DNA of 59,270 nt from a virus. Shown one piece after another: positions 1 to 59,270 of this stretch; position 1 is the stretch's first letter; every line of letters begins with the position of its first letter. The position numbers and the translations under genes are program-made. Under the pieces are notes generated by a model, which did no database searches, was not told where the DNA came from, and was given only the letters and a program-made list of their open reading frames with translations. The stretch is from IMG/VR virus record IMGVR_UViG_3300025536_000003, positions 1 through 59,270 of that record; one strand, given 5' to 3'.

Positions 1-127
1 GAACAGCGGGCCGTTCGCGGTGTCGGTGACGGAGAGCCAGCGATAGGTGTCGCGGTTGTTGCGGGCGAACAGCATTGTGCCGGTGTCGGTTTCCTTCGAC
101 TCGATGGTCTGGAAGAACTCATCATAC
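1..127. repeat. Terminal overlap, copy A (identical to 59144-59270)
   Basis: Exact 127-nt identity between window start and end. The length is typical of a k-mer overlap on a circular contig. Confidence 0.9.
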
Positions 128-3100
128 GCCGCGCGAATGGCCGGGATCTCGTCCGCTGTCGGGTATGGATACGTGCCCTCTTTCTCCAGCAGCAGCGCCG
201 TAGCGGCGTTCCAGTAGTCCTCCGACACAATGTTCGCGAGGTAGTCGTTGGACTGATTCTGATCCTGCAGTTTGCCGATGACGTACGCCTCGAAGGCACG
301 AGCCGTCATCTCGGTGCCGGTGCTCCAGTAGGCTTTGATGCGCGAACCATCCAGTTTCTTCGAGCGCTGCAGCAGCGCCGCGTGATTGACGGCGCGTGCG
401 ACCTTGGCGAATGCCTCGACCATTTCGGGGCGGATGCTGTCATCGCCGGGAAACTTCAGGCGCGGGCGCTCCGTCAGGAACTGATCCCGCTCACCTCGAA
501 GCCGCGAAAAGTAGTTGTCGAGCGAATGCCACCATTCATGCGCGAGGCTGCCAGCACCCGCGCCCTTGGTCAGGTTGATGACGATCTCGCCACGTTCGTA
601 GTGGGCTGACGCACTTCCGCCACCGGCTCCTTTGCCACCCTTGCCGCGCGCGCCGAAGGCCAGACCGAGTTCGCCATTCAGTGATAGGGAACGTGGCGGG
701 ATGCCGAGCACGCCGGCCATGTCGAGCAGCGCGTCGTAGGCGTTGTTCAAGTCCTGTTGCCGACGATTGCCCTCGACGTAGTTGCCGAACTGGACGCCGC
801 GGAAGCCGAACGCATCCTGGAATTGTTCCGGTGTGACATCGGCACCGTTGCGGTGATCAGCACCGACACGGGGCGAATTGGACTCCTTGCGCTCAGATGG
901 GATCTCCTTGTGCTTGGCCAGCAGTTGCTCAAGCTCGGCCTGATGGTCCTTCAGGTACTCGCGGGCTTCCTTCACGCTGTCGAAGGTTTTCAGATCGACA
1001 TGGTTCTTGCCGATCTTTTTGCCGATGATGGCCTTCTTCGGATCCGTCCTGCGGGAGTAGATCTCGAAAGAGACTTGCCGGCTGGCGGGCGGGTTGACGT
1101 CGAGCGTGCTGATACGCTTCTTGAATGCCTCGATCGCAGCCTCTCGGGTGTCGGCGCTGGCCAGGGTGCGCGGCCAATTGCTGAACGCAGTCGCCTTGGC
1201 TTGCTGCTCGACGGTCCAGATGACTTTCGGCGGGTCGTACTTCTTGCCCTCGTAGAGCTGGTACTTGCCTTCGACGACACGTACGCCCCTCAGAGATTTG
1301 GCGTGACCAACGGCCTCGTAGAGTTCGATGCGTCCGCCCAGTTCACGGGCCAGCGTGAAGTATTTCGCCTTCCTCAGTTCCTCGCGCATGCGCTCGACGG
1401 AGATATTGCCAGTCAGCAGGTCGTCGGAGAATTTCCGCAGTAGCTCGACCTGCTGGACCCATCCCTTCAGCTTCCAGGCTTTCTTCGGCTTGGTCGGGAT
1501 CTCGTCTCGAGCGGCGTGGACGAAGGCCACGGTCCAGGGATCGGCGCCTTCGTCGAGCAGTTGCTGATAGTCTGGTTCCGGCCAGGACTGCGACAGCGGC
1601 GCGCTTGCAATGTCAGCGCCGAGGGCTTCCTTCATCTTGTCCGCGTAGGCGGCAGCGTATTCCTTGCGTGCGCCCGCGATCTTCTCGCCGAAGTCTTCGA
1701 TCTTGCCGACTTCCGGTTTTGCCGCAACGGATGCGGCCGGCGCATTCGCGACGAGCTTCGCCTTGCCCTTCTCGCTGCCTTCGAGCATTTCCACTTCGTG
1801 GAACGTCTTGCCGGCGACGGTTTCGGTTTTGCCGGTGTAGCGAGCTTTGTCGCCCTTGAAGTAGGTCTCGTCGTCCGCGGTCTGGAATTTCGGCGCAACC
1901 GGCGCCAGCAAGTCCTGCTGACCCGCAGCAGCGGCCTCGTCGGCCACTCGGTCACTACCAGTCAGAGAAAAGCTGTCGCGCTGGTCATCGGCCTGCGCGC
2001 GCAGTTCCTGCTGCTGGCGGGCCTTCTCGGCGTCCTTCTTCTGCTGTTCCCGTGCGGCGAGGTCGGCTTCGGTATAGCCGTCTACTGCAAAGTCTTCGGT
2101 GCCTCGTGTGTCGGCTGGACTCGTCGTTTCGGGACGTGACCCTTCTTCCGGTTCTCCCGCAGCACGAGCAGGACTTGCATCGCGTCCGCGTTGACTGGCT
2201 TCTTCTTCGAGGAGTCGGATGGCTTCTTCATTGGAATACCCCTGCGTCGCGGCCAACTCCACGATGGTTTCGATGTCTTCTTCCGGCACGCCAGCTTCGC
2301 GCGCGCGCTCGGCGGCGTCAAGGATCTGCTCCTGACCCACTTCCGTCAGTGCGGCGTACTCCGCATCATCCAGTAACGGTTCGTAGGTCTCCGACGTCAT
2401 GGCCTGGCCACGCAGAGCGTTGCCCAAGGCTTCCAGCATGGGATTCTCGCCGTAGCCGTGTTCGTTCGAGACGGGATAGCGGAGATCGGACAGGTATTCC
2501 GACATGCCTTCAAGGGAACGGCCGTTGGTCGTGAAGACCCGCTTGATCTTCCAGCCGCGGCGATTGAATTCAGCCGGGTCGATCCCTGCTGCTGTAGCGG
2601 CTTCGCGGGAAATACCACCGGCCTTGGCTATCGCTGCCAGCAGGTCGTCCTTTTTCGGGTCGATGACGGACTCTTTCTTGTGCCGTTGGGAGGCGGCGAG
2701 AGCTCGTAGACGAGCCATTTCGGCACGATTGTCTGCAGCGGAACTCGGTGCCGCGGCAGCCGGTTTCTTCGTCCGCTTGCCGTCGGCGAGCCACGCCTGG
2801 AACTCGTCCTGCGTCATCTCGGTGATACCGCCGAGTCCTTTCCAGCCCTTCGTGTAATTCTCGAGGTAACCGGCGCGCGCAGCCTTTTCACTGCGGAAGC
2901 CGAGCATTACTTTATGTTCGTCCAGCGTGCCGTCCTTGTTGACCTGATCGACGACGAACACCGGGCCCGTCCAGTCATCGGCGGTACCGGGCTTGATGAA
3001 GACGTCGACCTGGTCGCCGTCCTTGCCCTCGGTGCGCTTGAAGTAGCCGTAGTGGCTCTTGAGTTCCGGCCACTTGGGTTGACGGCGGCTGCCGGCGGGG

Positions 3101-4929
3101 TTCTCGATGGCGACGTCCAGGCCGGCAACGCGGACATGACCCTTCTTGTAGTTGCCTTCTTCCTTCTGGGCCTCGGTCGGTTCGGGGCGATCGTTCAGCG
3201 GGCTGGTGGCGGCTTCGTGTGCCGCGGTGTCGACAGTACGCGCAACAGCCTTGTCATCGATGGCCATGTTCTTCGGCACATCGATGCCTTTCGTGAAGCC
3301 ACTGGGCACACGGACGAGATCCTCCCGGCCACGCTCACGGCGCTGGGCGATCTGCAATTCGGCCTGGGTCAGTTCGCGGGCATTGCCTTGACTGTCGACC
3401 CGGAACACACCGGTCTTCTGCGGGGGCGGAAGCATGGCCTGCAACGGTGCAGGAGCAGCAGGGATGGACTCCAGGAAGGTTTCGCGGACTGTGACATTGC
3501 TGGCGGGCTTCTCGGGCGCGGGCTCTTCTTCGGCCAAAGGTGCGGGTTCGACGACTTCGACCGGCCAGTCGGCGAACTTGACGTCGATATTGGCTGGCGG
3601 TGGGGCTTGGTCGAGCGCGGTCTGCAGTTCTTCGGCCGCGATGGCGGGACCGCTACGGTCGTCCGGTGGCGGTGGCGCGGCTTCAATGGTCTCGACCTCG
3701 AGTTCGGTCGGCTCGCCTTCGACGGGTTCTGCGGTTGCCTCACCGATGAGTTCGTCGACGGTGGGCTCGGCGGCAGGATCGGCTACGGGTGCAGGAGGTG
3801 GCGCAGCGGGCTTGTCCTTGCGCGCGCCCATCCCGATTGCCGCCAGTTCGAAGGGTGCGGTGACGCCTTCGCCGGCAATCTCCGCGACGACCTCACCGGG
3901 TTTGGTGATCTCACCCTTCTCGTAGATCTGCGCCAGGGCTTCACCGCCACCGCCGCCGGCCATCTGCGCCAGCATCTGGATGACGCCATCGAGTACAGGT
4001 TTGCCGGGTGTCAGGGTCTTGCTGGCGATCCCAGCAGTCAGTGCATCGACAGCACCAATGATGGCGCCGCGACCGATCCCGGCCTTCGAGGCGCGGTTGA
4101 TGACTTCCGGGTCGCGGAGCTTCCCGAGCACGGCCTGAGGATCGTTGGCCTGGGGGCCGAGTTCTTCCTGGATGTTTTCCAGGAAACCCAAGGTGCCCTC
4201 GATGGTGGCCGAGCTGCCGCCTATTCCAAGGGCTGCGGCGACTGGACCAAGCGGACCGAATGCCAGAGCCGGGGCTGAAATGATCGCACTCTGTGCGCCG
4301 AATCCTGTGACAGCACCGACGGGATCTTGCATGGCACGACCGAACGCATCGCCGAACGACTCGGCCTCACCAATCTCGCGCGTGATCGGTGATCTCGGCT
4401 GCTCGGCCATGAACTGGCTTTGCTGGGTGATGTCTTTGGCGGACTGCTGAAGACCTTGATCGGCTTTCTCTGCGATGGCCGCCCGTCGCTCAGGGCTCAG
4501 CGGATCGGTGGTGTTCTTGGCGTAGTCGGCTTGAGCCGCGCTGGCGAGTGCTGACAGGACGTTGCCGCCCTGCTCGACCAGGCCGTAGCCGACACCGAAG
4601 TCGTCACGGAGACGCTGCAGGAAGGGGACTTCCTTGTTGTAGGCGTCGACCTCGCGGCCGATCCGATCGGTTTCCGACTCGATGCGCGCCCAGCTTTCCG
4701 GTGCATGGGGTTTGCCACCACGGTACTGCCAGACGCTACCACCGGAGCCGCGTTTCGTTTCACCGAGCTTCGGTGCCAGGATGGATTGCGTGATGTTGAG
4801 CTTGTCGCGTAGACGGGCTTCTGAGCGGGTCAGCGGAGACGGTGCGCCGAAGACTTCTTCGTCAGACAGCTTGCGCGGCGATGCAGTGGCAGGCTGCGCG
4901 CCAAACACCTCGGCGTCGGAGTAGATCAT
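1..4929 (-). CDS. Giant polyvalent virion/ejection protein, 5' part (1,643 codons). It continues across the circular junction into 59143..55679. The whole gene is 8,394 nt (2,797 aa).
   Basis: The minus-strand frame (plus triplets 1-3, 4-6, ...) has no TTA/CTA/TCA from nt 1 to 4929. The ATG at 4929-4927 overlaps the upstream stop as ATGA. It is absent from the track only because no stop lies inside the window. The codon phase matches ORF 55679..59218. Motifs: GNYKKGH (3136-3156), DGDQVDV (3001-3021), zincin HEWWH (526-540). Confidence 0.85.
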   Translation of the reverse strand, partial: MIYSDAEVFGAQPATASPRKLSDEEVFGAPSPLTRSEARLRDKLNITQSILAPKLGETKRGSGGSVWQYRGGKPHAPESWARIESETDRIGREVDAYNKEVPFLQRLRDDFGVGYGLVEQGGNVLSALASAAQADYAKNTTDPLSPERRAAIAEKADQGLQQSAKDITQQSQFMAEQPRSPITREIGEAESFGDAFGRAMQDPVGAVTGFGAQSAIISAPALAFGPLGPVAAALGIGGSSATIEGTLGFLENIQEELGPQANDPQAVLGKLRDPEVINRASKAGIGRGAIIGAVDALTAGIASKTLTPGKPVLDGVIQMLAQMAGGGGGEALAQIYEKGEITKPGEVVAEIAGEGVTAPFELAAIGMGARKDKPAAPPPAPVADPAAEPTVDELIGEATAEPVEGEPTELEVETIEAAPPPPDDRSGPAIAAEELQTALDQAPPPANIDVKFADWPVEVVEPAPLAEEEPAPEKPASNVTVRETFLESIPAAPAPLQAMLPPPQKTGVFRVDSQGNARELTQAELQIAQRRERGREDLVRVPSGFTKGIDVPKNMAIDDKAVARTVDTAAHEAATSPLNDRPEPTEAQKEEGNYKKGHVRVAGLDVAIENPAGSRRQPKWPELKSHYGYFKRTEGKDGDQVDVFIKPGTADDWTGPVFVVDQVNKDGTLDEHKVMLGFRSEKAARAGYLENYTKGWKGLGGITEMTQDEFQAWLADGKRTKKPAAAAPSSAADNRAEMARLRALAASQRHKKESVIDPKKDDLLAAIAKAGGISREAATAAGIDPAEFNRRGWKIKRVFTTNGRSLEGMSEYLSDLRYPVSNEHGYGENPMLEALGNALRGQAMTSETYEPLLDDAEYAALTEVGQEQILDAAERAREAGVPEEDIETIVELAATQGYSNEEAIRLLEEEASQRGRDASPARAAGEPEEGSRPETTSPADTRGTEDFAVDGYTEADLAAREQQKKDAEKARQQQELRAQADDQRDSFSLTGSDRVADEAAAAGQQDLLAPVAPKFQTADDETYFKGDKARYTGKTETVAGKTFHEVEMLEGSEKGKAKLVANAPAASVAAKPEVGKIEDFGEKIAGARKEYAAAYADKMKEALGADIASAPLSQSWPEPDYQQLLDEGADPWTVAFVHAARDEIPTKPKKAWKLKGWVQQVELLRKFSDDLLTGNISVERMREELRKAKYFTLARELGGRIELYEAVGHAKSLRGVRVVEGKYQLYEGKKYDPPKVIWTVEQQAKATAFSNWPRTLASADTREAAIEAFKKRISTLDVNPPASRQVSFEIYSRRTDPKKAIIGKKIGKNHVDLKTFDSVKEAREYLKDHQAELEQLLAKHKEIPSERKESNSPRVGADHRNGADVTPEQFQDAFGFRGVQFGNYVEGNRRQQDLNNAYDALLDMAGVLGIPPRSLSLNGELGLAFGARGKGGKGAGGGSASAHYERGEIVINLTKGAGAGSLAHEWWHSLDNYFSRLRGERDQFLTERPRLKFPGDDSIRPEMVEAFAKVARAVNHAALLQRSKKLDGSRIKAYWSTGTEMTARAFEAYVIGKLQDQNQSNDYLANIVSEDYWNAATALLLEKEGTYPYPTADEIPAIRAAYDEFFQTIESKETDTGTMLFARNNRDTYRWLSVTDTANGPLF

Positions 4930-6005
4930 TCGTCAGACCAGCCGTCACCGACCCAGCGCAGAGGGCCTTTCGGGGTCTGATACATCGTGCCGCTGACGCG
5001 CTCGTTGACGGGCGGGGCTGGTGGTACGGCGGTCGGCGCGCCCTGCTCGATGACACCAAGCCATTCGTTGTAGAAGTCCTGGAGCGGGCGGTAGTTGGGA
5101 TCGCCCGGGCTTACCATGGCGGCCTTCTGCGCATCGAATTCCGCGCGCGCCATCTGCCCCGCTGCGACCGTCGGGTTCTGCACCGCTTCATTGGCCTTCT
5201 TCCACGCTTTCGCAGGGTCTGTTTCAATGCCTTGTGCGATAAAATATTCCATCAACTGCACCTTGGCCGGCTGCGTTTCCGACGGCGGCCGGGTGATGGG
5301 TTCGACTTTTCCATCAGAGCTGATGCGATAGGTGCCGCCATCAGGGAGTCCCATGGCCTTGGCCTGCTCGGCACTAAGCACGCCGTAGGTGGCTCGGGTG
5401 CTCGGGGTTTCCAGGGTCCAGTCGTCCTTCTTCGGACTGTAGAGCGCGGTACGTCCATCGATGTTCTCGACCGTGGGACGGGAGCGGTTCTTCAGCGCTT
5501 CACGGCCTTCGGCGATCCAGGCTTCGTCGTACTCTGTCGGCACTTCGGACGTGTCCATGTCAGCGGCTTTGGCGACCTTCTCCAAACGTTTCCGCCAAGC
5601 CCCCCAGGTCTGCGGCGTAACCGTGGTGACGCCTGACAATACTTCTTCGTACGCACCCGCCATTTCGATGTCGCCCAGCACGTTCTTGCGCTCGCGATCC
5701 GTTCTCTGATAACCACGGTCTTCACGCTGCCAGTCCCGCTGTTCGCCTTGAAAGGCGCGGTCTTCTTCGGCCAGCGCCATCTGGCGAAGCTGAAGGGCGG
5801 TCTTCGGATCACCGCCGGCTTGCAGATACTGAGTCGCCGCGGTGTCGTAGTCCGCACCAGAGGCGAGGATCTGCCCCAACTGGTTCTGGCTCTGAATACC
5901 ACGCAGCGATTCCATGGCCTGCAGATCGGACAGCATGTTCTGCCGTTCCGCCCGAGGATCGGGCTGCATCTGCATGAACATGTTCGAGACTTGCGTCGGG
6001 TTCAT
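4926..6005 (-). CDS. Hypothetical protein, candidate internal/ejection protein (359 aa)
   Basis: Long ORF with high third-position GC, ATGA-coupled to the giant gene. Its position matches the ejection proteins of P22-like phages. No catalytic motif recognised. Confidence 0.65.
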   Translation of the reverse strand: MNPTQVSNMFMQMQPDPRAERQNMLSDLQAMESLRGIQSQNQLGQILASGADYDTAATQYLQAGGDPKTALQLRQMALAEEDRAFQGEQRDWQREDRGYQRTDRERKNVLGDIEMAGAYEEVLSGVTTVTPQTWGAWRKRLEKVAKAADMDTSEVPTEYDEAWIAEGREALKNRSRPTVENIDGRTALYSPKKDDWTLETPSTRATYGVLSAEQAKAMGLPDGGTYRISSDGKVEPITRPPSETQPAKVQLMEYFIAQGIETDPAKAWKKANEAVQNPTVAAGQMARAEFDAQKAAMVSPGDPNYRPLQDFYNEWLGVIEQGAPTAVPPAPPVNERVSGTMYQTPKGPLRWVGDGWSDE

Positions 6006-6251
6006 GGTCGGTCGTCCTCGTCCAAGGGCTCAATTGCCTAGGAAACTCGATTAACTAATTGAATTTATAACCATTAATCAACTCACGTCACCGTAAATTA
6101 ACCGGCTAATTTACGCTTCGGCGCTTGACCGGATGCCATCCTCGCTAGCACGAGAAAGCGACATGCGCTAAGCGCGTGTCGTGTTTTCTGAAAGCACCCC
6201 GAATTAGATCGCGAAATCGCAATTTAATTTGAGGTGCTTGACAGGCGCCGA

Positions 6252-7013
6252 TTACCAGACCGGAGTCGAAGTGGAATATTGCTGCTGCGGCTGCCGAGAC
6301 AGACTCTGCAGGTAGTTGGCGTAGGCGTCACGCAAGGGATCGGGCTTGTACGAATCCACGATATTCCCGACCGCATTGGTCCACAGTGCACTACTTCCAG
6401 CGCCGGCATCCGCCGCTGAATTGACCCCGGCTCCTGTAGCCCCGGCCGCACCAATGCCATATCCCCCTACCATGTCAGCGGTCCGGCTGCCGGCATTGGC
6501 AAGAATGGAATTGCCTTCTCGACCGTAACCGGCCAGGGTCTGCAACTGATTGGTCCAGTCTTGAAAGGCGGGACGGGCCAGGTTTCCTGATGTCCAGTCC
6601 GTGAGGGCCTTCATGACGCGGCCGTTGTTCGTACCACCCGCCCCTCGAGATCGGCTGGAATACTGGTTCTCCCATGCCTTCATGCCTTCATCGAGGGCGA
6701 ACTGGTAGCCGGGTAGGTTGGTCAGGTAGTTGCTGACCTGGTTCGGTTTCAGTTTCCCGGGTGTCGCGATCTTCTCCAGCCAGCCGAGCGCGTTGGTGCC
6801 GGCCTTTCTCCAGGGCTCGTAGTCGGACCGGGTCGTCTCGAAGCGGTCTTGTGCCAGCTCGGCGGCGCGGTCATTGGCCTGTGCGATGAGCGCGGCGGCT
6901 TCCTGTTCCGCCTTGCCCTTCTTCTTCGTTGCTTTGGACCCGACGTAGGCCGTCGCCAATGGCACGGCCACCTTGGTGCCGAAGTCCCAGAGTTTGCCCC
7001 AATCGAATGCCAT
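6252..7013 (-). CDS. Hypothetical virion protein (253 aa), Gly/Ala-rich
   Basis: ORF in the late operon with an N-terminal hydrophobic stretch and a GGYGIGAAGATGAGV segment. Confidence 0.65.
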   Translation of the reverse strand: MAFDWGKLWDFGTKVAVPLATAYVGSKATKKKGKAEQEAAALIAQANDRAAELAQDRFETTRSDYEPWRKAGTNALGWLEKIATPGKLKPNQVSNYLTNLPGYQFALDEGMKAWENQYSSRSRGAGGTNNGRVMKALTDWTSGNLARPAFQDWTNQLQTLAGYGREGNSILANAGSRTADMVGGYGIGAAGATGAGVNSAADAGAGSSALWTNAVGNIVDSYKPDPLRDAYANYLQSLSRQPQQQYSTSTPVW

Positions 7014-7016: not shown

Positions 7017-7412
7017 TTATCTCCTGATCGCGGCGACCAGATAGGTCTCCGAGGTTGGGTCGATGCCGGACCCGGTGGTGTTCATGAAAGTGATTGCAAG
7101 CTCGTCGACATCCGAGGCGCGGACACCGACGATCCCGAGTCCAGCCTGATGCGTCGGTTTATTCACGTAGACGATGTCCGTCACGGCCAGCCCCACGACC
7201 GTGAAGGTCTGCTCGCTGGTCGTGTTGGCGTTCACTGTGGTCGGGTTAATCGTGATCTCGGTCGTGTTGATCTTCGCCGTCGCATCGGTGAGGCGCTGTA
7301 ACCATTTGTCCAGGGTTTCCATGAAGCGGGCGAACTGGCCCATGTTGGCCTTGCGCAAGTCTTCAAAACCGAGATCCGGTTTTGGCGGAGGCGATATTCC
7401 TTTCACGTTCAT
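7017..7412 (-). CDS. Hypothetical structural protein (131 aa)
   Basis: Start moved to ATG 7412 (MNVKGISPPP...), which overlaps the HNH stop as ATGA. The track start at 7475 would overlap the HNH gene by 67 nt. Confidence 0.6.
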   Translation of the reverse strand: MNVKGISPPPKPDLGFEDLRKANMGQFARFMETLDKWLQRLTDATAKINTTEITINPTTVNANTTSEQTFTVVGLAVTDIVYVNKPTHQAGLGIVGVRASDVDELAITFMNTTGSGIDPTSETYLVAAIRR

Positions 7413-8041
7413 AGCAGCTTGCCGCGGGTTTGCATAAAGTCCACTGGATGCTTTGCATGCTTCTGCATGTTGCATCGGCCATGCGTCAACTGAACATTGA
7501 AATCTTCGTTAGTGCCGCCTAATGACAAAGGAACGATGTGATCGAGGTGCTCGTCGCCGCAGAGCGGCTGGTAACAAATCGCGCAGCGCTCTTTCTGCAA
7601 TACTCTCAATCTCGGGATGATGCTGCCGCTGAGTGAACCGCCAACGAGTTTTGCGCGCTCTCGCCGACGTTGTTTATGTGCCCTCACAGCGTCAGGATTG
7701 GCTGCTTTCCATGCTTTCTTGGCTGCCGCCGCGCGTTCTTTGTTGCCGGCTTCCCACTCCCTGGACCGCGCATTTATTTTCTCGGCATTTTGCTTGTGAT
7801 ACTCGATTTTCCTTTCAGCAATGCGCTTTTTGTTTTTCTCTCTGTAGACTTTGTCCCTGGCGAGCGCGTGCTCTCGGTTGGCTTGGTACCATTCAGCCTG
7901 ACGCGCAAGCACTTCCTCTCTGCGTCGGTAGTAACGCTCCCGGCTTTGCTGCAATAGCTTTTCTTTATTGGCAAGGTGATACGCCGCAGCGTATTTCCGC
8001 TTCCGCTCCTTGCGTTCTTCCACTGTTAATTTCTTTCTCAT
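7409..8041 (-). CDS. HNH endonuclease (210 aa) inserted in the tail/ejection module
   Basis: C-terminal CAICYQPLCGDEHLDHIVPLSLGGTNEDFNVQLTHGRCNMQKH. Lys/Arg-rich helical N-terminus. Visibly lower GC than its neighbours. 4-nt overlaps on both sides. Confidence 0.85.
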   Translation of the reverse strand: MRKKLTVEERKERKRKYAAAYHLANKEKLLQQSRERYYRRREEVLARQAEWYQANREHALARDKVYREKNKKRIAERKIEYHKQNAEKINARSREWEAGNKERAAAAKKAWKAANPDAVRAHKQRRRERAKLVGGSLSGSIIPRLRVLQKERCAICYQPLCGDEHLDHIVPLSLGGTNEDFNVQLTHGRCNMQKHAKHPVDFMQTRGKLL

Positions 8042-9450
8042 GCTGCCAACACCGTGACGTCGGCGTAGGCCGCGATCAGGATGGCTTCAATGGGATCGGT
8101 GACAGCCAGTTCGAATCTGAAATCGTTCATCTGCCCCAGTCGGTACCAGATCGCTCTTCGGGTGTAATCGCCCAGGGCTCCCATCGGCTGCCAGAGTTCA
8201 TTGGACCAGGTGTTCCCGCCGTCGTAGCTGTACCGGAAAATGGCCTGTGGATCCGATCCCTGTCCATCCACCAGTCCCTTACCACGGGCGAATTCCACTT
8301 CGAACTCATTGACCTCGAATTGCAGCCCGTCCTTGTGCAGGACCGCTCCCCTTCTGACCCGTCGGATGGTCTGTCCGTCGTCGGTGTACTTGGTCGGATC
8401 CAGGGCATAGAGCTTGGCGTTCATGAAGTCGCCGACATAGTGCCGGCCGTTGAACCGTCCATACCCCCGGGAACGATGTCTGCCCATGCCGTGAGAGCTT
8501 CTGTCATGCCACTGACCTTGTTCGACGTGGTAGGTCAGCGTGAGATCCTCAGAGGGGAAGGTCAGCACGTAGAACGTCTGATCGGCTTCGGTATAGGCAT
8601 AACCTTCCGCATCGGCGATCGTCGTCATCCGGGACAGGGTGTAGGCGATGTCGGGATCGGCAATACGCTGAGCCTGAAACCCGTTGATCCGGAGTACCGT
8701 GATCCCACCACCTTCGACCTGGGCCAGCATGAAAATGTTGCCACCAGTCTTCGTGACACTGGCTGGCGCTGGTGTGCCGAATTCCAAGACACCATTGGCA
8801 TAGAGATCGAACGGGAACTGCGGATTGCCGGAGTTGTAGTAGACCTGGGTCGTCAGGGTTCCGATGATGTAGAGATCGCGGTAGGTCGTGACAATCGCAA
8901 CGGCATCATCGGGACTGGCTTCAGCACTGGCGAATTCCAAAGCATCCCAACTGGTCGGGTTTTCTGAGGCTGACTTGTTCCACTGATCCGTGTTCGCATC
9001 GAGGACGAGAAAGAAGCCGTCGAGATAGCCGCAGTAGGACGGATTGGCCGGGAAGTCGCCATCGCTGATCGCGGCGAAGGTCGTATCGTTCCACGTGTAT
9101 CCATCGCCACCATCGGTGATCATGAGATAAGTTCTGCCAGCGGCGAGGTAGCAGTAACCGGTATTCGTATTGAGCGAACCGACCGCAGACACGGATTCCG
9201 CGGTGGTCATCTTCATCAGCTCACTACCTGATACCCAGTAGGCCGCGCCAGCAAACTCGACGATGTTGGAACGAGTCGGGCCGTTACCAAACTCGATCCG
9301 GCGATCGAGTCCCGGGGTCGGTAACATGGTCAGCACGCTCTTGGCCCCATCCCCTTCCAGAGACGGATACCAGTTGATGCTGCGTTGACTGTTGACCTGA
9401 ATGGCGCGGTCGCTTTGACGCGCACCGGAGAGCGGCAGGGAGACGCGCAT
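8038..9450 (-). CDS. Tail hub / DNA-stabilisation protein, P22 gp10-like (470 aa)
   Basis: Size and position are like P22 gp10. The N-terminal ...SINWYPSLEG... and propeller-like repeats are recalled from the phage stabilisation protein family; this was not searched. Confidence 0.5.
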   Translation of the reverse strand: MRVSLPLSGARQSDRAIQVNSQRSINWYPSLEGDGAKSVLTMLPTPGLDRRIEFGNGPTRSNIVEFAGAAYWVSGSELMKMTTAESVSAVGSLNTNTGYCYLAAGRTYLMITDGGDGYTWNDTTFAAISDGDFPANPSYCGYLDGFFLVLDANTDQWNKSASENPTSWDALEFASAEASPDDAVAIVTTYRDLYIIGTLTTQVYYNSGNPQFPFDLYANGVLEFGTPAPASVTKTGGNIFMLAQVEGGGITVLRINGFQAQRIADPDIAYTLSRMTTIADAEGYAYTEADQTFYVLTFPSEDLTLTYHVEQGQWHDRSSHGMGRHRSRGYGRFNGRHYVGDFMNAKLYALDPTKYTDDGQTIRRVRRGAVLHKDGLQFEVNEFEVEFARGKGLVDGQGSDPQAIFRYSYDGGNTWSNELWQPMGALGDYTRRAIWYRLGQMNDFRFELAVTDPIEAILIAAYADVTVLAA

Positions 9451-10932: not shown

Positions 10933-12042
10933 TTAAGCCCTCACTCCGTAAAGCGTATAGTTCATCGCGGCGATGTTGCCCGACGAAAAAAACACCCGGA
11001 ACGCGGTCGTCGGGCCGGCTGCCTGGATCTGCCCGCTGCCATGATTCACGTTCAACGCAGGACCGTTCGACTGGTAAGAGACACGGAAAAGAACCTGCGT
11101 GATCCCTGTGCCTGCGGGGTTCAGTAGAATGATCTCTCCTGACATTTCTTCGGCTGCTTGATTCCCGCTGTTCCCTGTCAATTCTATAAAGGCAGCTTCG
11201 TCATCGCCGAGGGCTCCGGTGGTCCCCGCTTCGGTCGCCCAAATGTAGTTCCACGCATAATCGGCAGCGTCTGCTTCGTAAGTTGATCCTCCGTCATCTG
11301 ACAATCGGAGCCGAAAAGGCACGTTATCTGTCGCCGGCTTCAATCCATCGAACACGAGTCGAATTTCTCGATAGGCGGCAGTCAACCCAGTGATGTCGAG
11401 TGTGGCGGCAGAGGCAACAGTTCCAGACGCCATTTTCTGCATTGCGCCATTGATGATGGCGTGCCAGTTGACTCCGTCACAGCGAAGATCGCAGCCTTCT
11501 CCATACCCGAAGGCCAGCGTGGTGGAACCGTTGATGGTCTCGGATCCATCGCCGTCCATCGTGACGACACCGGTACCGATGTTGAGGAAATTCAGCACGA
11601 ACCCATCGCCTGCCGTCGCCGCTGCTGGTAACGTCAGCGTCCAGGTTCCTGATGTCGCCACAATGGCCTTGCCATCATCCGCTACCGCTACGGTATAGGC
11701 CGCCGTCTTGGTCAGGACGCCAGAATCCTTGTCGGCCCAGGAGCCGAAGCCTTCCGCATCGGGATTCAGATTGTCGCCGCCGACTGGCGTGATCAGGACG
11801 TCATCCGCGTCATACACCAGCGCTTTGGTGTCGCCATCGAACCAGATCTGACCTGAAGGCGGACGGCCGTACGCATCCAGAATGATCGGGTTCGCGTGCG
11901 GTGTCGTGAGATCGGAATCTTGGTAGGCCGTCTTCGGTGTCGTGGTACCGACTTCGTAGGTGTAGATCTTCCCGCCAGCAAGAGGATCGCCGGCATTGTC
12001 GTGGAACTGGACACCACCGCCATACCAGAGTGCTTTGCCCAT
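10933..12042 (-). CDS. Tail fibre / tailspike-like protein (369 aa)
   Basis: The N-terminus MGKALWYGGGVQFHDNAGDPLAGGKIYTYEVGTTTPKTAYQD matches the conserved particle-binding N-terminus of many podophage fibres (recalled, not searched). Confidence 0.5.
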   Translation of the reverse strand: MGKALWYGGGVQFHDNAGDPLAGGKIYTYEVGTTTPKTAYQDSDLTTPHANPIILDAYGRPPSGQIWFDGDTKALVYDADDVLITPVGGDNLNPDAEGFGSWADKDSGVLTKTAAYTVAVADDGKAIVATSGTWTLTLPAAATAGDGFVLNFLNIGTGVVTMDGDGSETINGSTTLAFGYGEGCDLRCDGVNWHAIINGAMQKMASGTVASAATLDITGLTAAYREIRLVFDGLKPATDNVPFRLRLSDDGGSTYEADAADYAWNYIWATEAGTTGALGDDEAAFIELTGNSGNQAAEEMSGEIILLNPAGTGITQVLFRVSYQSNGPALNVNHGSGQIQAAGPTTAFRVFFSSGNIAAMNYTLYGVRA

Positions 12043-12746
12043 TACTCGAAGTCTCCGCTCTGGAAGTTGAACCGTGCGCGACTCAGCAGAGCTGGATCGA
12101 CCGTCAGCGTGGGAACACGAGACGACAGGTTGTGCCCCATGACTTGATTCATCGTCTGCTGCGCCATGGCTTTGGTGGTCTGCGAGGCTTCCTTGCCGTA
12201 GTCCGGGGCCAATCGAACAGCGAGGTTGCTGACCAGCAGTTCGTCATACTCGGTCGGCAGATCGTCATCCGTGGTCAGTTCTGCGAATCCGGTCAGCGGC
12301 TTCAGGCTCCACAGGATCAGCGTGTAGGCTTGATCCAAGGTGCGGTTGAAGTAGAGCCGGCCCAGCGGTTCTGACGGCTCGTAGTGGACGCTGTCCGGAC
12401 GGCCGGAATCGCTCTTGTCGATCTCGCGTTCCAGCAATTCCAGGCTGATCAGCCTCAGGCTGTATTCCGTGTCGCCGGACTTCAGCTTGGCAATGACGAT
12501 CTCCATCGGCCTGACCGTGCTCAGCGTGCCACCCGTTCCGATGGTGTAGGTGTCCGCACCGCCCGAGATCGCGAGTTCTTCGCGGGTGCGGTACGGGATC
12601 ATCAAACCCTTGGCGCCGGACCAATGCCCGATCATGCGGTTCAGCTTGCGGAAGCCGAGTTGCATGTCATCTGCAGACACTGAGAACCCGGCCCGCTTCA
12701 CCCGCAGTTCGGACAGAGCATCCTCAACGATCGCTTGCGCTTTCAC
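12042..12746 (-). CDS. Head-to-tail adaptor / tail tubular A-type protein candidate (234 aa)
   Basis: GTG start. The pattern ...FRKLNRMIGHWSG... and its position before the fibre gene support the call. Function is from memory only. Confidence 0.4.
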   Translation of the reverse strand: MKAQAIVEDALSELRVKRAGFSVSADDMQLGFRKLNRMIGHWSGAKGLMIPYRTREELAISGGADTYTIGTGGTLSTVRPMEIVIAKLKSGDTEYSLRLISLELLEREIDKSDSGRPDSVHYEPSEPLGRLYFNRTLDQAYTLILWSLKPLTGFAELTTDDDLPTEYDELLVSNLAVRLAPDYGKEASQTTKAMAQQTMNQVMGHNLSSRVPTLTVDPALLSRARFNFQSGDFE

Positions 12747-13995: not shown

Positions 13996-14583
13996 TCACG
14001 CGGCGTCTGCCGCAGCATCAGCGTCCGGACAGTCCCGACGCCACGTGTAAGGCCCGGTATGCGAGACTCGAATCGAGCCATCGACCCACACCGTGCCGCC
14101 CGCCTCCTGCACTTTCTGGCAGAAGGCAATGTCTTCGCCCATGAAGCGCTCGCCTATCCAGCGCGCGTCGAACAGGCGTCCTGTCAGCCGCTCGAGCAGC
14201 GCTCGGCGGATGCGTAGCAAACCGGTGCCGACGTAGTCCCGCGCGACCAGGGCGGCCGGCGCTTCGCGGTCGCACGCGATGCCGTCACCGCGCTTGGGGC
14301 AGACCGCGCCGACCACATCGACGTCATGCGTCAGCAGTCGACACCAGCCTTCGGCGTCGAAGCCGATGTCGTCATCGAGGAAGACGAGATCGGTGTAGTC
14401 GCTGGCCAGGAACTCCTGTACGGCGCGCTCGCGGATGACGTGAATGAAGCAGCCGCCCAGTTGCACCTTCCAGCGGTAGCGGATGCCGGTCAGGGTCATG
14501 GCGGCGGCGGCATCGGCCATGCCGAGCGCCGTCGGGACCGAAATGGCCGCGTTGTTCGACGGCGTAAAGATCCAGACTTTCAC
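13996..14583 (-). CDS. Glycosyltransferase (GT-A-like, DxD), 195 aa
   Basis: LVFLDDDIGF DxD motif, VCPKRGDG, GTGLLRIRRALLERL, GEDIAFCQKVQEAGGTVWVD. Paralogous to the N-half of 14580..15803. GTGA-coupled. Confidence 0.65.
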   Translation of the reverse strand: MKVWIFTPSNNAAISVPTALGMADAAAAMTLTGIRYRWKVQLGGCFIHVIRERAVQEFLASDYTDLVFLDDDIGFDAEGWCRLLTHDVDVVGAVCPKRGDGIACDREAPAALVARDYVGTGLLRIRRALLERLTGRLFDARWIGERFMGEDIAFCQKVQEAGGTVWVDGSIRVSHTGPYTWRRDCPDADAAADAA

Positions 14584-19344: not shown

Positions 19345-19373
19345 AAGATCCTCCACCGGCCATGGGCCAGGCG

Positions 19374-23894: not shown

Positions 23895-24328
23895 TAGAGC
23901 TTGCTCCGTATGGCGTCACGCAACTCGCGCAGCGTGCGTGTCGGGTGATCGGTGATGGCGCCCGCCGCTGCCTTCATCGCAGCGAGGTTCGATGCCCCGT
24001 CGATCCCGTCCAGCAGCGCGTTCATCTTCAGCGCGTGCCGGTTGAGTTCGTCGAGCAACACTTCCGCGAGCGCGCGCATGATAGTTTGCTGCTGCTCGAT
24101 CTCCGCAGCCAGAGTATCGAGTCGGCTGGCTTCATCGGCGAGGTCAAGCGCCTGGCGCTCGCTTTCGGATAGCAGCGCAACCGTATCGCCTGTGACGATC
24201 CAGTAACGCGAATCGAAGCCGGTTACAGCCGAGAGATCGGGATCGATGATCCAGTCCTCGATCGGATAGTCCGGCGTGTTGACGCTCTGCCGGTACTCTC
24301 GCGTCGTTCTGTGTAGCACGTCAGCCAT
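23894..24328 (-). CDS. Hypothetical protein (144 aa)
   Basis: ORF with 1-nt overlaps on both sides. C-terminal half is helical. Confidence 0.6.
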   Translation of the reverse strand: MADVLHRTTREYRQSVNTPDYPIEDWIIDPDLSAVTGFDSRYWIVTGDTVALLSESERQALDLADEASRLDTLAAEIEQQQTIMRALAEVLLDELNRHALKMNALLDGIDGASNLAAMKAAAGAITDHPTRTLRELRDAIRSKL

Positions 24329-29391: not shown

Positions 29392-29554
29392 TCTGCTCCA
29401 TGATGGTCTTGTCGCACGCTGCGCAGGCGATCCGAATGGCGCCACGACGGCCGGCGGGATGGGCTTGCGTCATGTAGATGCGGAACAGTTCGCCGTGGCA
29501 ATCCGCACAGGCCGTGGGCTTGACCGGTTTCGGCATTGCGACGACGTTGTTCAT
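29378..29554 (-). CDS. Small zinc-ribbon protein between terL and portal (58 aa), not in the ORF track
   Basis: The ATG at 29554 overlaps the terL stop as ATGA. Translation: MNNVVAMPKPVKPTACADCHGELFRIYMTQAHPAGRRGAIRIACAACDKTIMEQSGGD. Confidence 0.5.
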   Translation of the reverse strand: MNNVVAMPKPVKPTACADCHGELFRIYMTQAHPAGRRGAIRIACAACDKTIMEQSGGD

Positions 29555-55385: not shown

Positions 55386-55705
55386 AAGCTGCGGTGGTGT
55401 TGTTGGTGCTCGTCGCTGTCTGGCAGACCGAGCGCTTTCAACGCTGGATCAATCCCGACACCTACTACACCAATCAAGTCCGCGACTACCAGGACGCGAT
55501 TGCGTACGCGCGCATGGCTATCCTGGAACACCGAGAGGCGATCAGCACGCTGCCCTTGATTGATGAGGCCGATGCTGAGGTCCGGCCGATGTTGGTCCGT
55601 GGGCTCGAAGCGGACATCGCCGCGGAGGAAGAGATGATTGACTGGTACCAGGAGCAGATCCGCGCCCTGGATGCGGCCTTAGCGGAGTTTCGCCGACACC
55701 ACTGA
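55382..55705 (+). CDS. Membrane-anchored coiled-coil protein (107 aa)
   Basis: GTG is GTGA-coupled to the lipoprotein gene. N-terminal AAVVLLVLVAVW. Convergently overlaps the end of the giant gene by 27 nt. Confidence 0.5.
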   Translation: MKAAVVLLVLVAVWQTERFQRWINPDTYYTNQVRDYQDAIAYARMAILEHREAISTLPLIDEADAEVRPMLVRGLEADIAAEEEMIDWYQEQIRALDAALAEFRRHH

Positions 55706-58700
55706 TTCTCTGGCGAAGGTCTGTAGATCCTTCTGCATGCGGATCAGCTTCTCGCGGTACTTTTCTGCCATCGCCTTACGTTCGTCACGGCTGAGGGAGC
55801 GATCTTTCATGATGGCCGACTGCGCCCGTTTCACTTCCGAGATCTGCCACTTCATGTAGCGGATGGTCTGCTGGCGTTGCTTCAGCGGTTCGATGGGGTA
55901 GATGTTGATGCCGGCGAACCGTGCCAGTGCTTGCGGCAAGGTCGATCGCGGTTCGCCGCGCTTGTCGGTCACACCTGCCAGGGCTTCGTAGAGATGTCCT
56001 GCAGCCCCTCGATAGGTGCTGTGGTCATGGAACGGAGGTATGCCGACCAGCCAGCCCGGGGCGGCCATGCCGTAGAGATAGGTGATCCAGGCATGCAGTT
56101 TTTCAGAGCCGGTCGACGATTCGCGGACGATTTCTTTCTTCGTGAAGGAATCACGACCGGTCTTGATCGCCGCCAACAGATCGGGAAGTGGACCACCGAA
56201 CAAGCCATTGGCCATGACGAGATCGCCCAAGTGACTCGACTCTCCGGTTGTCGCGAGATCTTTCGCGGTCCGTCCAATCTTGGTCAGTGTCTCGGTATAG
56301 AACGACCACGGCATGAAGTAGCCGAGATCGGCGTACTGCCAGCGGCCATGCTCGTCCTTGACCGGGATCATGACGGCGTGGCCCTTCTCTCTGAGCCATT
56401 CAGGAAGCGCCTTCTTCAGGGCATCCATGTCGTCGTCATCCGCACCGGTCATCAACTGGGCAATCAGTCCAGCACCGTAGAACAGGGCCAGGTAGGGCAG
56501 GTATCTCCAAGGGGCGGTAATGGCCACCTCGAGCAGTCTGGGCAGGACTTTTAAGGTAAAGGTAAGGAATGGGAACCCTATCGGCGCGTTCCTGAGATAG
56601 CGGGTATTCCGACCTACCAGCGAGTAGTCGAACAGCCATTCCTGCGCTTCCAGTGCGGCATCGGCCTCTGACTTCCCTTCCCGTTCCACGGCATCCATGA
56701 TCTTCATGATCTTGCCCAGGGTCTCGGCCATCTGATAGGCATCCCCGGTAACGTCGATGATCTTGCCGGCCAAGGTCTTCAGCGTCAGCAGACTGAAGCC
56801 ATCCCGTTGACGGACCAGCATGTCGGTCACTTCGTTCTCGATGCGCATCAATTCCTGCGCGGCGAAGGTCGATTCCGTCACCCCGTACTTGACGCCGATC
56901 TTGTAGAACGGGCCCTTGGTGCGGACTTCCATGGCGGCGCGGCGCATGTAGCCCGGGATCTTGTGCATCGGCACGCCGGACAGATTGAGCAGGACGAGAT
57001 TGGACACGATGTTGCGGATCTGAGCTGGCGGATTGGCTGCCACTTTCGCCCACTTCCAGAGTTGGGTCGCCTTCGTGCCCCAGCCGCCGTAACCCAGGAT
57101 CTTTTCAGCGATCCCAGCTTCGTCGCCCAGGATCCTTCCGACACCGACGATGTCGTCGTAGATCTCCCGACGTACCACCAGTCCCCTGATAGCCCCGTAG
57201 CGGGCCGTGTTCGGCACCTTGGCGTAACCCTGCGGGACTTCTTCAGCAGAGATCCCTGCAGCAGCCAGCGTTGAATCCGCCAGCTCGTCCATGGTCTTCG
57301 CGGCGTCCATGGCTTGCTTCTGGTGATCGCCCTGGTAATAGGCCGCCCGTTCACGAAGTTTCGAGGCTTCCGCTTTCAGCCAGAACGGCGTCACCTTGCG
57401 GGCCTTGGTCATTCCCGGAGCCGTCCAGCCGACGGTCTGCCCTGGCAGGGCCCAGTCCGCATTCTCTGCGATACGGGACAGCCAGTTCAGGATGGCGAGG
57501 TCACGGAGCGGAATACCCAGTGCACGAGACGCGAGGAAGGCCGGATCCTTGATCTCACCCAGGATGACGTCGCGGTACTCCTGTGGCAGGGTTTCATTAC
57601 GCTTCTTGGCGTACCCTTGGGATGACAGGGTCTTGCCCGTCCCAACAGCAGCCACGGCCCGGTCACCCAAGAGATAGGCGAGGTAGACCCGGGGAAGATA
57701 CCGGCCCTGGTAGGCTTCGAACGATTCCACCGGAATGACGCCAGCCTCGACCAGCGCTTGTCCCGTCTTGTCGATGAGCGCCTTGGCCTTGGCCGCTTCC
57801 TTCTTCAGGGCGGGATCGGACACGGTGTCCAGCGTCCCTTCGGTGTCGGTCAGGTAGGCGTAGAGCGCTTCACCGTCGGCCTTGCTGGCTTTGCGGAAGA
57901 TGTCGTAGATGGACCGTGCTACGCGCTGCGTTTCGGCAATTCGACCGAGCGTCAGATAGCGATCCTTGAGGTAGTCCGTACGCCCGGCGAGCGTCGCCAA
58001 GGGTTTCGTCTTGGCATCCAGCCAGTTGACGATGGTCAGGGCGCGATCCTTCAGATTCTGGCGGGACTTCTCGGCTTCGGGTGCGATGGAGTCGGTGTCC
58101 TCGCTGCGCGCGAACTTCGTACCCACATCCCGCTCCGCCGATCGCATCGCAGCACCCTTCGCCAGCTCCACCAACGCATCCGGACTGATGGCGCGGGTGA
58201 AGCCCATGCGAATGAGGAAGGCGCGGATCTTGGCGATGATGCGCTTGACCAGCGGCAGGTCGTGGTTGGCTCTGTCGGTGACGAGCCAGGCCATCGTTTC
58301 TTCGGCGACGTGATCCGGGTTGGTGCTCGAGGGGACTTGCGCACGGGCCTGCTTGGCGGCGCGGGCCAGGGCGTTGTTGGTCTTCGACCGGGATGCCTGC
58401 ATGACCTGTTGCGACAGCTCGTCGAACAGCGTGTCGCCCAGCATCTGACGCAGGCCGTGGTGCACGCCGAGCTCGTGGAGCAGGATGGCGTAGGCGTCTT
58501 CGAGGCCGGCGACTGTCTGCCCTGCGGACAGTGCGTCGGCGATGAGATAGACCTTGCCCTTGTGCGTGAAGCCGTGGACCGTACCGGTGCTGATGGCGCG
58601 CTTGGCGTCCGGCGGCAGGGTCGTGTCTTCGCTCGTCGTGATGACGAGCGTGCCGGCGTCGACCAGACGTTGGACACCGGGACCGAGTCGGTCGGTCAGG

Positions 58701-59270
58701 TAGGTTTGGACTTGCTCCGGGCTGCTGCGATCTGATCGCGGACTTCCTTGGGCGCCAGCGTCGGCAGTTTCGCTTGTTCCGCGGCCCAGTCCGCGTACAT
58801 CTGCTGCTCGGCTGAAAGCGTCCCAGTCGAGGGTGGCGTCTGGTTTTTCGTCTCCGACGTAGTCATAAGCACCTACCTTGTCCCAGAATCCCCGCGCGTC
58901 GGGGAGGATGGAATGAATCGCGATGGTATCACTGTTCGCGGCGAGCGCCGCCATGACACTGGTCCCGAAGCCCTTCGAGCCGGTTTCGTTGTGGAGCCAG
59001 TACAGATCGGTGATCTTGCCATCTTCGACCCGCAAGGTGACGACACCGATGCGACGATCGTTCTCGTCGAGGACGTGATAGCCAGTCGTCTTGAAGGTGT
59101 TCGGGAACTTGGACGCCGGCCACAGCGTGAGCTTCTCGCCGACGAACAGCGGGCCGTTCGCGGTGTCGGTGACGGAGAGCCAGCGATAGGTGTCGCGGTT
59201 GTTGCGGGCGAACAGCATTGTGCCGGTGTCGGTTTCCTTCGACTCGATGGTCTGGAAGAACTCATCATAC
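55679..59270 (-). CDS. Giant polyvalent virion/ejection protein, 3' part (the frame stays open to the window edge; joins 4929..1)
   Basis: The track ORF 55679..59218 starts at an internal Met, and the frame continues through 59270 in phase with nt 1-4929. Contains a GNAT-like segment, LLHELGVHHG (58457-58477) and C-terminal hydrophobic helices. Confidence 0.85.
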   Translation of the reverse strand, partial: YDEFFQTIESKETDTGTMLFARNNRDTYRWLSVTDTANGPLFVGEKLTLWPASKFPNTFKTTGYHVLDENDRRIGVVTLRVEDGKITDLYWLHNETGSKGFGTSVMAALAANSDTIAIHSILPDARGFWDKVGAYDYVGDEKPDATLDWDAFSRAADVRGLGRGTSETADAGAQGSPRSDRSSPEQVQTYLTDRLGPGVQRLVDAGTLVITTSEDTTLPPDAKRAISTGTVHGFTHKGKVYLIADALSAGQTVAGLEDAYAILLHELGVHHGLRQMLGDTLFDELSQQVMQASRSKTNNALARAAKQARAQVPSSTNPDHVAEETMAWLVTDRANHDLPLVKRIIAKIRAFLIRMGFTRAISPDALVELAKGAAMRSAERDVGTKFARSEDTDSIAPEAEKSRQNLKDRALTIVNWLDAKTKPLATLAGRTDYLKDRYLTLGRIAETQRVARSIYDIFRKASKADGEALYAYLTDTEGTLDTVSDPALKKEAAKAKALIDKTGQALVEAGVIPVESFEAYQGRYLPRVYLAYLLGDRAVAAVGTGKTLSSQGYAKKRNETLPQEYRDVILGEIKDPAFLASRALGIPLRDLAILNWLSRIAENADWALPGQTVGWTAPGMTKARKVTPFWLKAEASKLRERAAYYQGDHQKQAMDAAKTMDELADSTLAAAGISAEEVPQGYAKVPNTARYGAIRGLVVRREIYDDIVGVGRILGDEAGIAEKILGYGGWGTKATQLWKWAKVAANPPAQIRNIVSNLVLLNLSGVPMHKIPGYMRRAAMEVRTKGPFYKIGVKYGVTESTFAAQELMRIENEVTDMLVRQRDGFSLLTLKTLAGKIIDVTGDAYQMAETLGKIMKIMDAVEREGKSEADAALEAQEWLFDYSLVGRNTRYLRNAPIGFPFLTFTLKVLPRLLEVAITAPWRYLPYLALFYGAGLIAQLMTGADDDDMDALKKALPEWLREKGHAVMIPVKDEHGRWQYADLGYFMPWSFYTETLTKIGRTAKDLATTGESSHLGDLVMANGLFGGPLPDLLAAIKTGRDSFTKKEIVRESSTGSEKLHAWITYLYGMAAPGWLVGIPPFHDHSTYRGAAGHLYEALAGVTDKRGEPRSTLPQALARFAGINIYPIEPLKQRQQTIRYMKWQISEVKRAQSAIMKDRSLSRDERKAMAEKYREKLIRMQKDLQTFARESVVSAKLR
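59144..59270. repeat. Terminal overlap, copy B (identical to 1-127)
   Basis: Exact identity to nt 1-127. Confidence 0.9.

Follow-up and report, generated by a model that had tools for sequence, protein, structure and literature searches.

A 2,797-amino-acid polyvalent protein encoded across the linearization point of a circular temperate phage genome

The giant gene and the contig junction

The window analyzed here is the whole 59,270-nucleotide (nt) stretch of the IMG/VR virus record IMGVR_UViG_3300025536_000003. It is the circular genome of a temperate podovirus-like (P22/933W-like) phage of 59,143 bp, and its largest gene, which encodes a giant protein of 2,797 amino acids, is split between the two ends of the linear record. 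Nucleotides 1-127 are an exact copy of 59144-59270, and these 127 nt are the longest terminal overlap of the window. In the minus-strand frame made up of the plus-strand triplets 1-3, 4-6 and so on, there are zero stop codons over 1-4929 (1,643 codons), and the start codon ATG at 4929-4927 shares the sequence ATGA with the TGA stop of the upstream open reading frame (ORF) 4926..6005. ORF 55679..59218, which ends with the stop codon TAA at 55679-55681, continues this frame without a phase shift. Appending 59143->55679 to 4929->1 yields 8,394 nt, i.e., 2,797 codons plus TAA, which corresponds to 14.2% of the 59,143-bp circle and to a product of 305 kDa.

Independent evidence comes from the ENA contig ERZ27300258:k141_298303, which we located by a look-up of the neighboring 359-amino-acid protein. 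This contig has a length of 59,284 bp (59,143 bp plus an overlap of 141 nt), and the circle was opened elsewhere. A comparison of 21,080 bp of the contig (designated L005) with the rotated window revealed 0 mismatches over 21,080 bp. The junction of the window falls inside L005 between positions 16005 and 16006, the giant gene runs uninterrupted over L005:11077-19470, and the product called in the public contig is identical to the reconstructed protein. Furthermore, a 3.2-kb JGI contig from another dataset (3300001798) is 100% identical to window positions 3710-6870, away from the junction, and several homologs are collinear in alignment across the junction at residues 1643/1644. The parts of the gene in the window are:

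1..4929, minus strand: 5' part of the giant gene, codons 1-1643, stop-free and identical to L005:11077-16005
55679..59143, minus strand: 3' part of the giant gene, codons 1644-2797 plus TAA, in phase with the 5' part and contiguous in L005
59144..59270, no strand: terminal duplicate of nt 1-127, a circular-assembly overlap outside the true genome

The overlaps of 127 and 141 nt correspond to the maximum k-mer sizes typically applied by two widely used metagenome assemblers. Therefore, the repeat at the ends reflects the assembly of a circular molecule and is not a biological repeat, and it is uninformative on the real DNA ends of the phage. The giant gene is absent from the ORF track because this copy was linearized inside the gene; the antisense plus-strand ORFs 757..1443, 1516..2139 and 2914..4278 are present there. 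The initial annotation, which was made from the letters and an ORF list, had already proposed such a hidden 8,394-nt gene without a stop in 1-4929, joined in the same codon phase to ORF 55679..59218 via the terminal identity and masked by these three shadow ORFs. This reconstruction is borne out in every part, by the exact sequence match as well as by the public contig that spans 59143/1. The GC content at third codon positions (GC3) is uninformative on the strand, with mirror-image values, and the strand was assigned from the open frame and homology.

We also considered that the long ORF might be an artifact, produced by a chimeric join of the contig ends or left by a pseudogene in decay. Taken by itself, the window is no proof that its ends are joined, the gene is split at just this point and the overlap has the length of an assembler k-mer. 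A chimeric join is, however, ruled out by the independently linearized contig, in which the overlap differs in length and the sequence runs across the junction with 100% identity over 21 kb. The identical JGI contig, though away from the junction, and the homologs that are collinear across residues 1643/1644 speak against an artifact as well. In addition, the catalytic motifs described below are intact, and the probability of a chance stop-free run of 2,797 codons is about 4e-38 given the base composition. Hence, an artifact has practically no chance of being the explanation, and the giant gene is one intact, real ORF. As a practical lesson, circular contigs should be rotated before gene calling, as otherwise the largest gene may vanish from ORF lists.

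At its 3' end, the giant gene is met by a 107-amino-acid ORF at approximately 55382-55705 (plus strand), which is called in the public contig (L005:19444-19767, minus strand). The two genes are convergent and share the last 27 nt of the giant gene. No intrinsic terminator-like site was found between them in a scan of the sequence downstream of the giant-gene stop.

Domain architecture of the giant protein

From the N- to the C-terminus, the following modules were recognized (pI, isoelectric point; AF2, AlphaFold2; pLDDT, predicted local distance difference test):

3670..4647, minus strand: Gly/Ala/Pro-rich acidic module (pI 4.3), residues 95-420, conserved in homologs
2788..3174, minus strand: InPase domain, residues 586-714, family-I inorganic-pyrophosphatase-like oligonucleotide/oligosaccharide-binding (OB) fold of the polyvalent-protein type
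1255..1734, minus strand: helical start of the core supermodule, residues 1066-1225 (phrog_616, phrog_26030, 16-sequence alignment, AF2 helices with pLDDT 79-91)
811..1254, minus strand: LPD5, residues 1226-1373 (Pfam PF18799, E 6e-48)
94..810, minus strand: predicted metallopeptidase domain 1 (zincin-like), residues 1374-1612, from motif, profile and AF2 topology
94-351, minus strand: LPD1, residues 1527-1612 (Pfam, E 1.2e-19)
58793..59125, minus strand: GNAT-like acetyltransferase module, residues ~1650-1760, from Pfam matches of homologs and alignment motifs
58148..58675, minus strand: predicted metallopeptidase domain 2 (HEXXXH type), residues 1800-1975, from motif conservation
55682..58075, minus strand: all-alpha basic (pI 9.4) tail module of ~800 residues, residues 2000-2797, from homology to gp26 of Anabaena phage A-4L

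The acidic N-terminal module is found with 28-35% identity in at least 13 giant homologs, always near their N-terminus, and contains the sole strongly hydrophobic stretch of the protein at about residues 214-237. It has no Pfam match and no similarity to PDB sequences or to gp27 of phage A-4L. Pfam searches with six sub-segments of the giant protein assigned no family to residues 1-360, 1644-2000 and 2401-2797.

The InPase domain matches Pfam PF18823 with an E-value of 2.9e-46 and 157.1 bits (cut-off 26.8) over model positions 1-134 of 135. Residues E609, D637, D642, D670, E671 and K673 are each at least 95% conserved among 59 sequences, and the DGDQVD sequence of the domain fits D-x-D-x-x-D. 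The hunch of the initial annotation that a pyrophosphatase-like stretch is present was thus right both in its reference to the D-x-D-x-x-D signature and in the family, which can now be named as the polyvalent-protein InPase; its span had to be corrected from 3001-3156 to 2995-3162, i.e., by 6 nt at each end. InPase domains of polyvalent proteins are devoid of the beta-hairpin insert of cellular family-I enzymes, and two options, pyrophosphate or a nucleotide-like molecule, have been put forward for them (Iyer et al., 2017; PMC5512222). The same InPase family occurs on a capsid-interior protein in portal-InPase fusions (C-terminus of the gp19 portal in PDB 9b41; BcepF1.124), whereas in the giant it is part of a polyvalent protein. 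When phage genomes were searched at the DNA level with the giant gene, the only matches were short, 66-76% identical and located in the InPase region, which indicates that the gene has no close cultured relative.

The core supermodule (residues 1066-1630) is common to 17 giants and p72 of phage 933W with 27-64% identity. Its first metallopeptidase domain carries the motifs AHYE (residues 1442-1445) and HEWWHSLD (residues 1464-1471), and HEWWH (residues 1464-1468) is encoded by nt 526-540, exactly where the initial annotation had placed it. The His of AHYE, the H, E, H and D of HEWWHSLD as well as E1540 and E1547 of LPD1 are invariant in 16/16 sequences. In the AF2 model (pLDDT 76), strands 357-360, 377-380 and 385-388 are followed by the HEXXH helix 397-412 and then by a Glu helix 472-491 (model numbering). 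Because the model puts the Glu helix after the HEXXH helix, LPD1 is best read as the C-terminal helical half of metallopeptidase domain 1. NCBIfam CLCA_X (NF041907) covers residues 1354-1609 with an E-value of 6.5e-39 and 134 bits, below its 260-bit cut-off, and a profile of the core supermodule had no match among PDB sequences.

Two variants of such domains have been described in polyvalent proteins, one in which strand 2 terminates in a conserved His and HEXXH is followed three residues later by an Asp, the other with HEXXXH; the superfamily was linked to lethal factor, and the domains were argued to cut the polyprotein into working units (Iyer et al., 2017; PMC5512222). Motif, topology and weak fold matches support the prediction that domain 1 is zincin-like. 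The zincin site of the initial annotation therefore stands as far as motif, topology and fit to the phage-type variant are concerned, and has to be qualified by fold matches that are weak and in no case significant. The second domain is a predicted zincin-like metallopeptidase of the HEXXXH variant, with HELGVH at residues 1866-1871 (nt 58460-58477) and E1925 downstream. H1866, E1867, H1871, G1873 and E1925 are each at least 90% conserved among 23 sequences. Between both peptidase domains lies the GNAT-like module, for which 2/5 aligned homologs match Pfam Acetyltransf_1 (best E 4.8e-6) and the alignment contains GxG and ARGFWxKMG motifs. A profile of residues 1625-1975 had no match in the PDB.

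Relationship of the C-terminal tail module to a pre-ejectosome protein

A 12-sequence profile of the tail module (hmmsearch) matched a single solved structure, chain A of PDB 9k3a, with an E-value of 1.8e-7. This entry is the pre-ejectosome of Anabaena phage A-4L, and the 1,114-amino-acid chain matches gene A4L_26 (gp26) by length and name. Comparing the tail module with gp26 by hhalign resulted in a probability of 95.2% and an E-value of 2.6e-8, and residues 2475-2776 (nt 55745-56650) were placed on gp26 717-1049. An AF2 model of the module (pLDDT 73, predicted template modeling score 0.71) was compared with predicted viral structures (BFVD) using Foldseek, which retrieved A-4L gp26 over nearly the whole module (E 5.4e-10, TMq 0.52), as well as C-terminal pieces of polyvalent proteins with E-values down to 1.5e-21, among them one from an LPD38-annotated protein (E 1.2e-9). 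Remote homology and predicted structures thus support a homology of the tail module to gp26. The A-4L pre-ejectosome is a pentameric assembly that sits on the portal; its outer layer is made up of five copies each of gp26 and gp27, whose Arg and Lys residues hold the first turn of the packaged DNA (PMC12002296). A link of polyvalent-protein tails to this solved protein was not found in the searchable literature. The gp26 gene (L004 16766-20110) is annotated just as "tail protein" and its product has no significant Pfam domain.

An exhaustive profile search revealed 11,236 representatives of clusters at 50% identity that contain the tail module at E <= 1e-3, and 3,470 at E <= 1e-30. Among the 150 listed of these 11,236 representatives, the match ends within ~21 residues of the C-terminus in 150/150. 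The listed proteins have lengths from 691 to 5,093 amino acids and comprise stand-alone forms of 690-900 amino acids and giants of up to 5,093. This range from stand-alone to giant proteins, with the module always at the C-terminus, fits a chassis with cargo on its N-terminal side and suggests that the tail module is a stand-alone ejection protein that repeatedly gained cargo domains there.

No NCBIfam model matched residues 1644-2797 at E <= 0.1, including PLxRFG/"tail-700" (NF032893, 681 positions), and hhalign of the tail profile against the giant P0008, which has PLxRFG/tail-700 at 2221-2882, gave a probability of 0.3%. NF032893 models the C-termini of other giant polyvalent proteins (P0008 and others). 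A tail family of more than 11,000 clusters for which neither Pfam nor NCBIfam has a model that matches this branch looks like a gap in the domain libraries. Pfam LPD38 (PF18857) did not match the tail module either, and hhalign revealed a weak collinear similarity (8-11% probability) to 933W p72 and the homolog P0001 beside their LPD38. The module is therefore probably a distant structural relative of LPD38 and not a member of the family. A-4L gp26 and gp27 are likewise without a Pfam LPD38 match. Because gp26 is related by predicted fold to polyvalent C-termini, including the LPD38-annotated one, we suggest that LPD38-type tails and gp26 may belong to one structural superfamily.

Genome context and class assignment

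The giant gene is the final gene of the late operon and follows the connector and ejection genes. The relevant neighbors and the two loci on the opposite strand are:

29551-31080, minus strand: large terminase (PHROG scan)
27028-29445, minus strand: portal (PHROG scan)
18250-19356, minus strand: scaffold (PHROG scan)
17000-18211, minus strand: major capsid protein (PHROG scan)
12042-12746, minus strand: P22 gp4-like adaptor (PHROG scan)
8038-9450, minus strand: P22 gp10-like head-closure gene (the upstream late genes rest on PHROG 578, 1035 and 598)
7409-8041, minus strand: HNH endonuclease (PHROG 1035, E 9e-19, endonuclease VII-like)
7017-7475, minus strand: ORF between the HNH gene and the "DNA ejection" gene
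6252-7013, minus strand: "DNA ejection" family protein (PHROG)
4926-6005, minus strand: 359-amino-acid ORF directly upstream of the giant gene
53189-54106, plus strand: tyrosine integrase, opposite to the late operon
48372-51976, plus strand: SbcD-like and SbcC-like nuclease genes, opposite to the late operon

The order of the head-closure gene, a few ORFs and the giant gene in last position is kept in the contigs of the best homologs P0001 and P0013 (L002 and L003). It is also found in the Shiga toxin (Stx) phage 933W, where the 2,806-amino-acid ST933Wp72 occupies the position of the giant gene. This synteny, in the window and in relatives, agrees with the initial annotation, which had called the gene the last late gene after ejection-protein-like ORFs. 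The integrase indicates that the phage is temperate, and it carries its own SbcCD-type nuclease.

The giant protein is a phage-type polyvalent protein in the sense of Iyer et al. (2017), ordinary though previously unnamed. On a single polypeptide of 2,797 amino acids it combines several unrelated catalytic and LPD domains (InPase, LPD5, LPD1, two metallopeptidase motifs and a GNAT-like module). Its gene lies among virion genes, with the terminase, portal, scaffold, capsid, adaptor, head-closure and ejection genes upstream on the same strand, in a phage with an integrase. The initial annotation had supposed an injected giant of the polyvalent or DarB type. The Pfam matches to LPD5, LPD1 and InPase, the synteny and the virion proteomics of relatives back the polyvalent part, whereas DarB in the strict sense is not supported, as methyltransferase and helicase domains are absent. 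It had also failed to recognize the domain string; all domains are of known kinds, and their combination reflects normal shuffling within the class. Thus, all recognizable domains, the gene position and the class were known already, the gene is called intact in a public assembly, and the finding extends current understanding without changing it. It adds one more architecture to the polyvalent-protein class. A full-length relative was not found: the best match has 55% identity over 28% of the query, and piecewise matches reach at most about half of the length.

With the polyvalent proteins described by Iyer et al. (2017; PMC5512222), the protein shares the giant multidomain form beside virion genes as well as InPase, LPD5, LPD1, both metallopeptidase variants and a GNAT-like domain. 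It differs from them by N- and C-terminal modules without a Pfam or NCBIfam model. Its GNAT-like module stands beside peptidase domains in an alphaproteobacterial-type phage, whereas the GNAT families of that study occur in gammaproteobacterial prophages beside ART domains and in conjugative elements. The giants of the Stx phages, ST933Wp72 and gp47 of phi24B (2,811 amino acids), have the same size, their genes likewise come last among the late genes, behind the head-closure gene and small ORFs, and their LPD5-zincin-LPD1 core is 38-40% identical over residues 1076-1623. In contrast to the protein described here, they contain MuF_C and LPD38 and are devoid of InPase and the GNAT-like module, and their C-terminal regions are just weakly collinear with the tail module (hhalign 8%). 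Mass spectrometry showed phi24B gp47 (LPD5, LPD1, LPD38) to be abundant in virions; it is invisible in the symmetric cryo-electron microscopy map and has been suggested as an ejection protein.

P1 DarB and the "DarB-like" giants of Bcep22 (gp75) and JC1 (gp69) are likewise large proteins associated with the virion, and their genes close the morphogenesis module. The JC1 protein gp69 was detected in virions and possesses an LPD38-type tail. DarB-type proteins contain methyltransferase and helicase modules, none of which occur in the giant analyzed here. The virion RNA polymerase gp50 of N4 is also giant, encapsidated and ejected, and a zincin-like domain is embedded in its region needed for encapsidation (PMC5512222), but the giant has no RNA polymerase module and no significant similarity to it. 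A-4L gp26 (1,114 amino acids; PDB 9K3A/9K2V) is similarly basic, all-alpha and encoded by the last gene of an ejection-protein block. With ~20% identity, it differs from the giant by the lack of any recognized enzymatic cargo (no significant Pfam domain). By analogy to its virion-associated relatives and with its gp26-like C-terminus, the giant protein is probably delivered into the host together with the DNA.

Proposed function and alternative explanations

We consider it likely that the 305-kDa polyvalent protein of this temperate P22/933W-like podovirus is loaded into the capsid by its tail module and ejected with its enzyme cargo. According to this model, the C-terminal module would act as a conserved chassis by which the protein is built into the core of the capsid, above the portal. 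At infection, the protein would leave the virion via the tail together with the DNA or before it, and the N-terminal enzymes would be carried in as cargo. Either inside the capsid or once the protein has entered the host, the metallopeptidase domains may split it into individual units; processing would be expected in the Pro/Ala-rich linkers at about residues 370-560, 720-760, 925-1065 and 1760-1800. The InPase might remove pyrophosphate or cleave a nucleotide-like signal, the GNAT-like domain might modify a host target, and the combined activities would favor early establishment of the phage. This makes the InPase and GNAT-like domains candidate early-acting effectors. The most useful by-product of the analysis is that the C-terminal tails of the giants are tied to a pre-ejectosome protein of solved structure, which provides a concrete and testable model of loading and expulsion.

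Several observations weigh against this model. In the comparison of the tail model with the PDB, Foldseek returned nothing significant (N4 virion RNA polymerase was on top with E 0.5), and the solved 9K3A/9K2V chains were missing from the best 50 matches, so that the structural link to gp26 rests on its predicted structure. Furthermore, A-4L is a T7-like lytic cyanophage with a different four-protein ejection set, and a pentameric outer ring in a P22-like capsid would be an extrapolation by analogy. The model of LPD5-zincin-LPD1 also had no significant match in the PDB, with anthrax lethal factor (E 0.13) and 8s5f (E 0.5) as best matches. HExxH domains can be non-proteolytic, and the weakly matching HExxH domain of 8s5f is an oxygenase. 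The GNAT-like sequence of the window itself has no Pfam GNAT match at E <= 10. Finally, a peptidoglycan hydrolase was found neither in the giant protein by Pfam nor in the 10 neighboring ORFs scanned.

The main rival to cargo delivery is a structural role in ejection, in which the whole polypeptide builds a channel through the envelope and the enzymes serve penetration, e.g., by peptidases that cut peptidoglycan cross-links, rather than cytoplasmic targets. The homology of the C-terminal module to a pre-ejectosome protein speaks for such a conduit, many relatives contain the lytic transglycosylase PF01464, and the authors of the phi24B study proposed gp47 as a trans-periplasmic conduit whose peptidase attacks peptidoglycan. 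The hydrophobic N-terminal Gly/Ala-rich module could also insert into a membrane, although just one stretch exceeds a simple hydrophobicity threshold. However, it is not obvious what InPase and GNAT would contribute to crossing the wall, the giant is devoid of a transglycosylase or M23 domain by Pfam, the lack of a recognizable peptidoglycan hydrolase in it and in the 10 scanned neighbors counts against a conduit as well, and zincin-like domains of the polyvalent class have been tied to self-processing (PMC5512222). Altogether, we regard a conduit as improbable. An antirestriction function of the DarB type, with a protein that enters the capsid with the DNA and, like its P1 counterpart, shields this DNA in cis against type I restriction, has far less to recommend it and seems very improbable. 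PHROG 10089, "DarB-like antirestriction", matches residues 353-995 with an E-value of 3e-46, and related giants in PBC5, POI1126, Atu_ph08, Bcep22 and JC1 are labeled DarB-like, but the PHROG match does not extend beyond the linker and InPase region. P1 DarB has methyltransferase and helicase domains as its hallmarks; Pfam detected no DNA methyltransferase or helicase domain at E <= 0.1, and DarB membership was rejected on this ground. Counterparts of DarA, DdrA, DdrB, Hdf and Ulx did not turn up among 20 neighboring and structural ORFs in a general PHROG scan, which was not a specific search for them.

Capsid loading and cargo delivery, the reading that we prefer, can be taken one step further. 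The tail module might be the chassis by which podovirus polyvalent proteins are universally loaded into capsids and ejected, forming a gp26-like DNA-anchoring ring in P22/933W-like capsids, and the InPase, GNAT-like and LPD5 cargo might act on a nucleotide-based host immune signal and not on pyrophosphate. This extension is speculative and in our view rather unlikely in this far-reaching form. If it were true, it would answer how giants like phi24B gp47 sit in the head, and a few copies of a 305-kDa string of enzymes would be delivered per infection.

Further genes of the late operon

The HNH gene at 7409-8041 overlaps both of its neighbors (8038-9450 and 7017-7475). It may have arrived as a mobile insertion or represent an HNH gene linked to packaging at an unusual location. 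Between the capsid and tail genes, a 407-amino-acid ORF (14580-15803, minus strand) has weak Pfam matches to a methyltransferase (E 5e-4) and a glycosyltransferase (E 6e-3), its PHROG function is not assigned, and it is an odd gene for this position. Two large late ORFs at 24328-26538 (minus strand, 736 amino acids, TTG start) and 19434-21083 (minus strand, 549 amino acids) have no PHROG family. The first of them shows weak Kelch or beta-propeller matches and may encode a receptor-binding or decoration protein.

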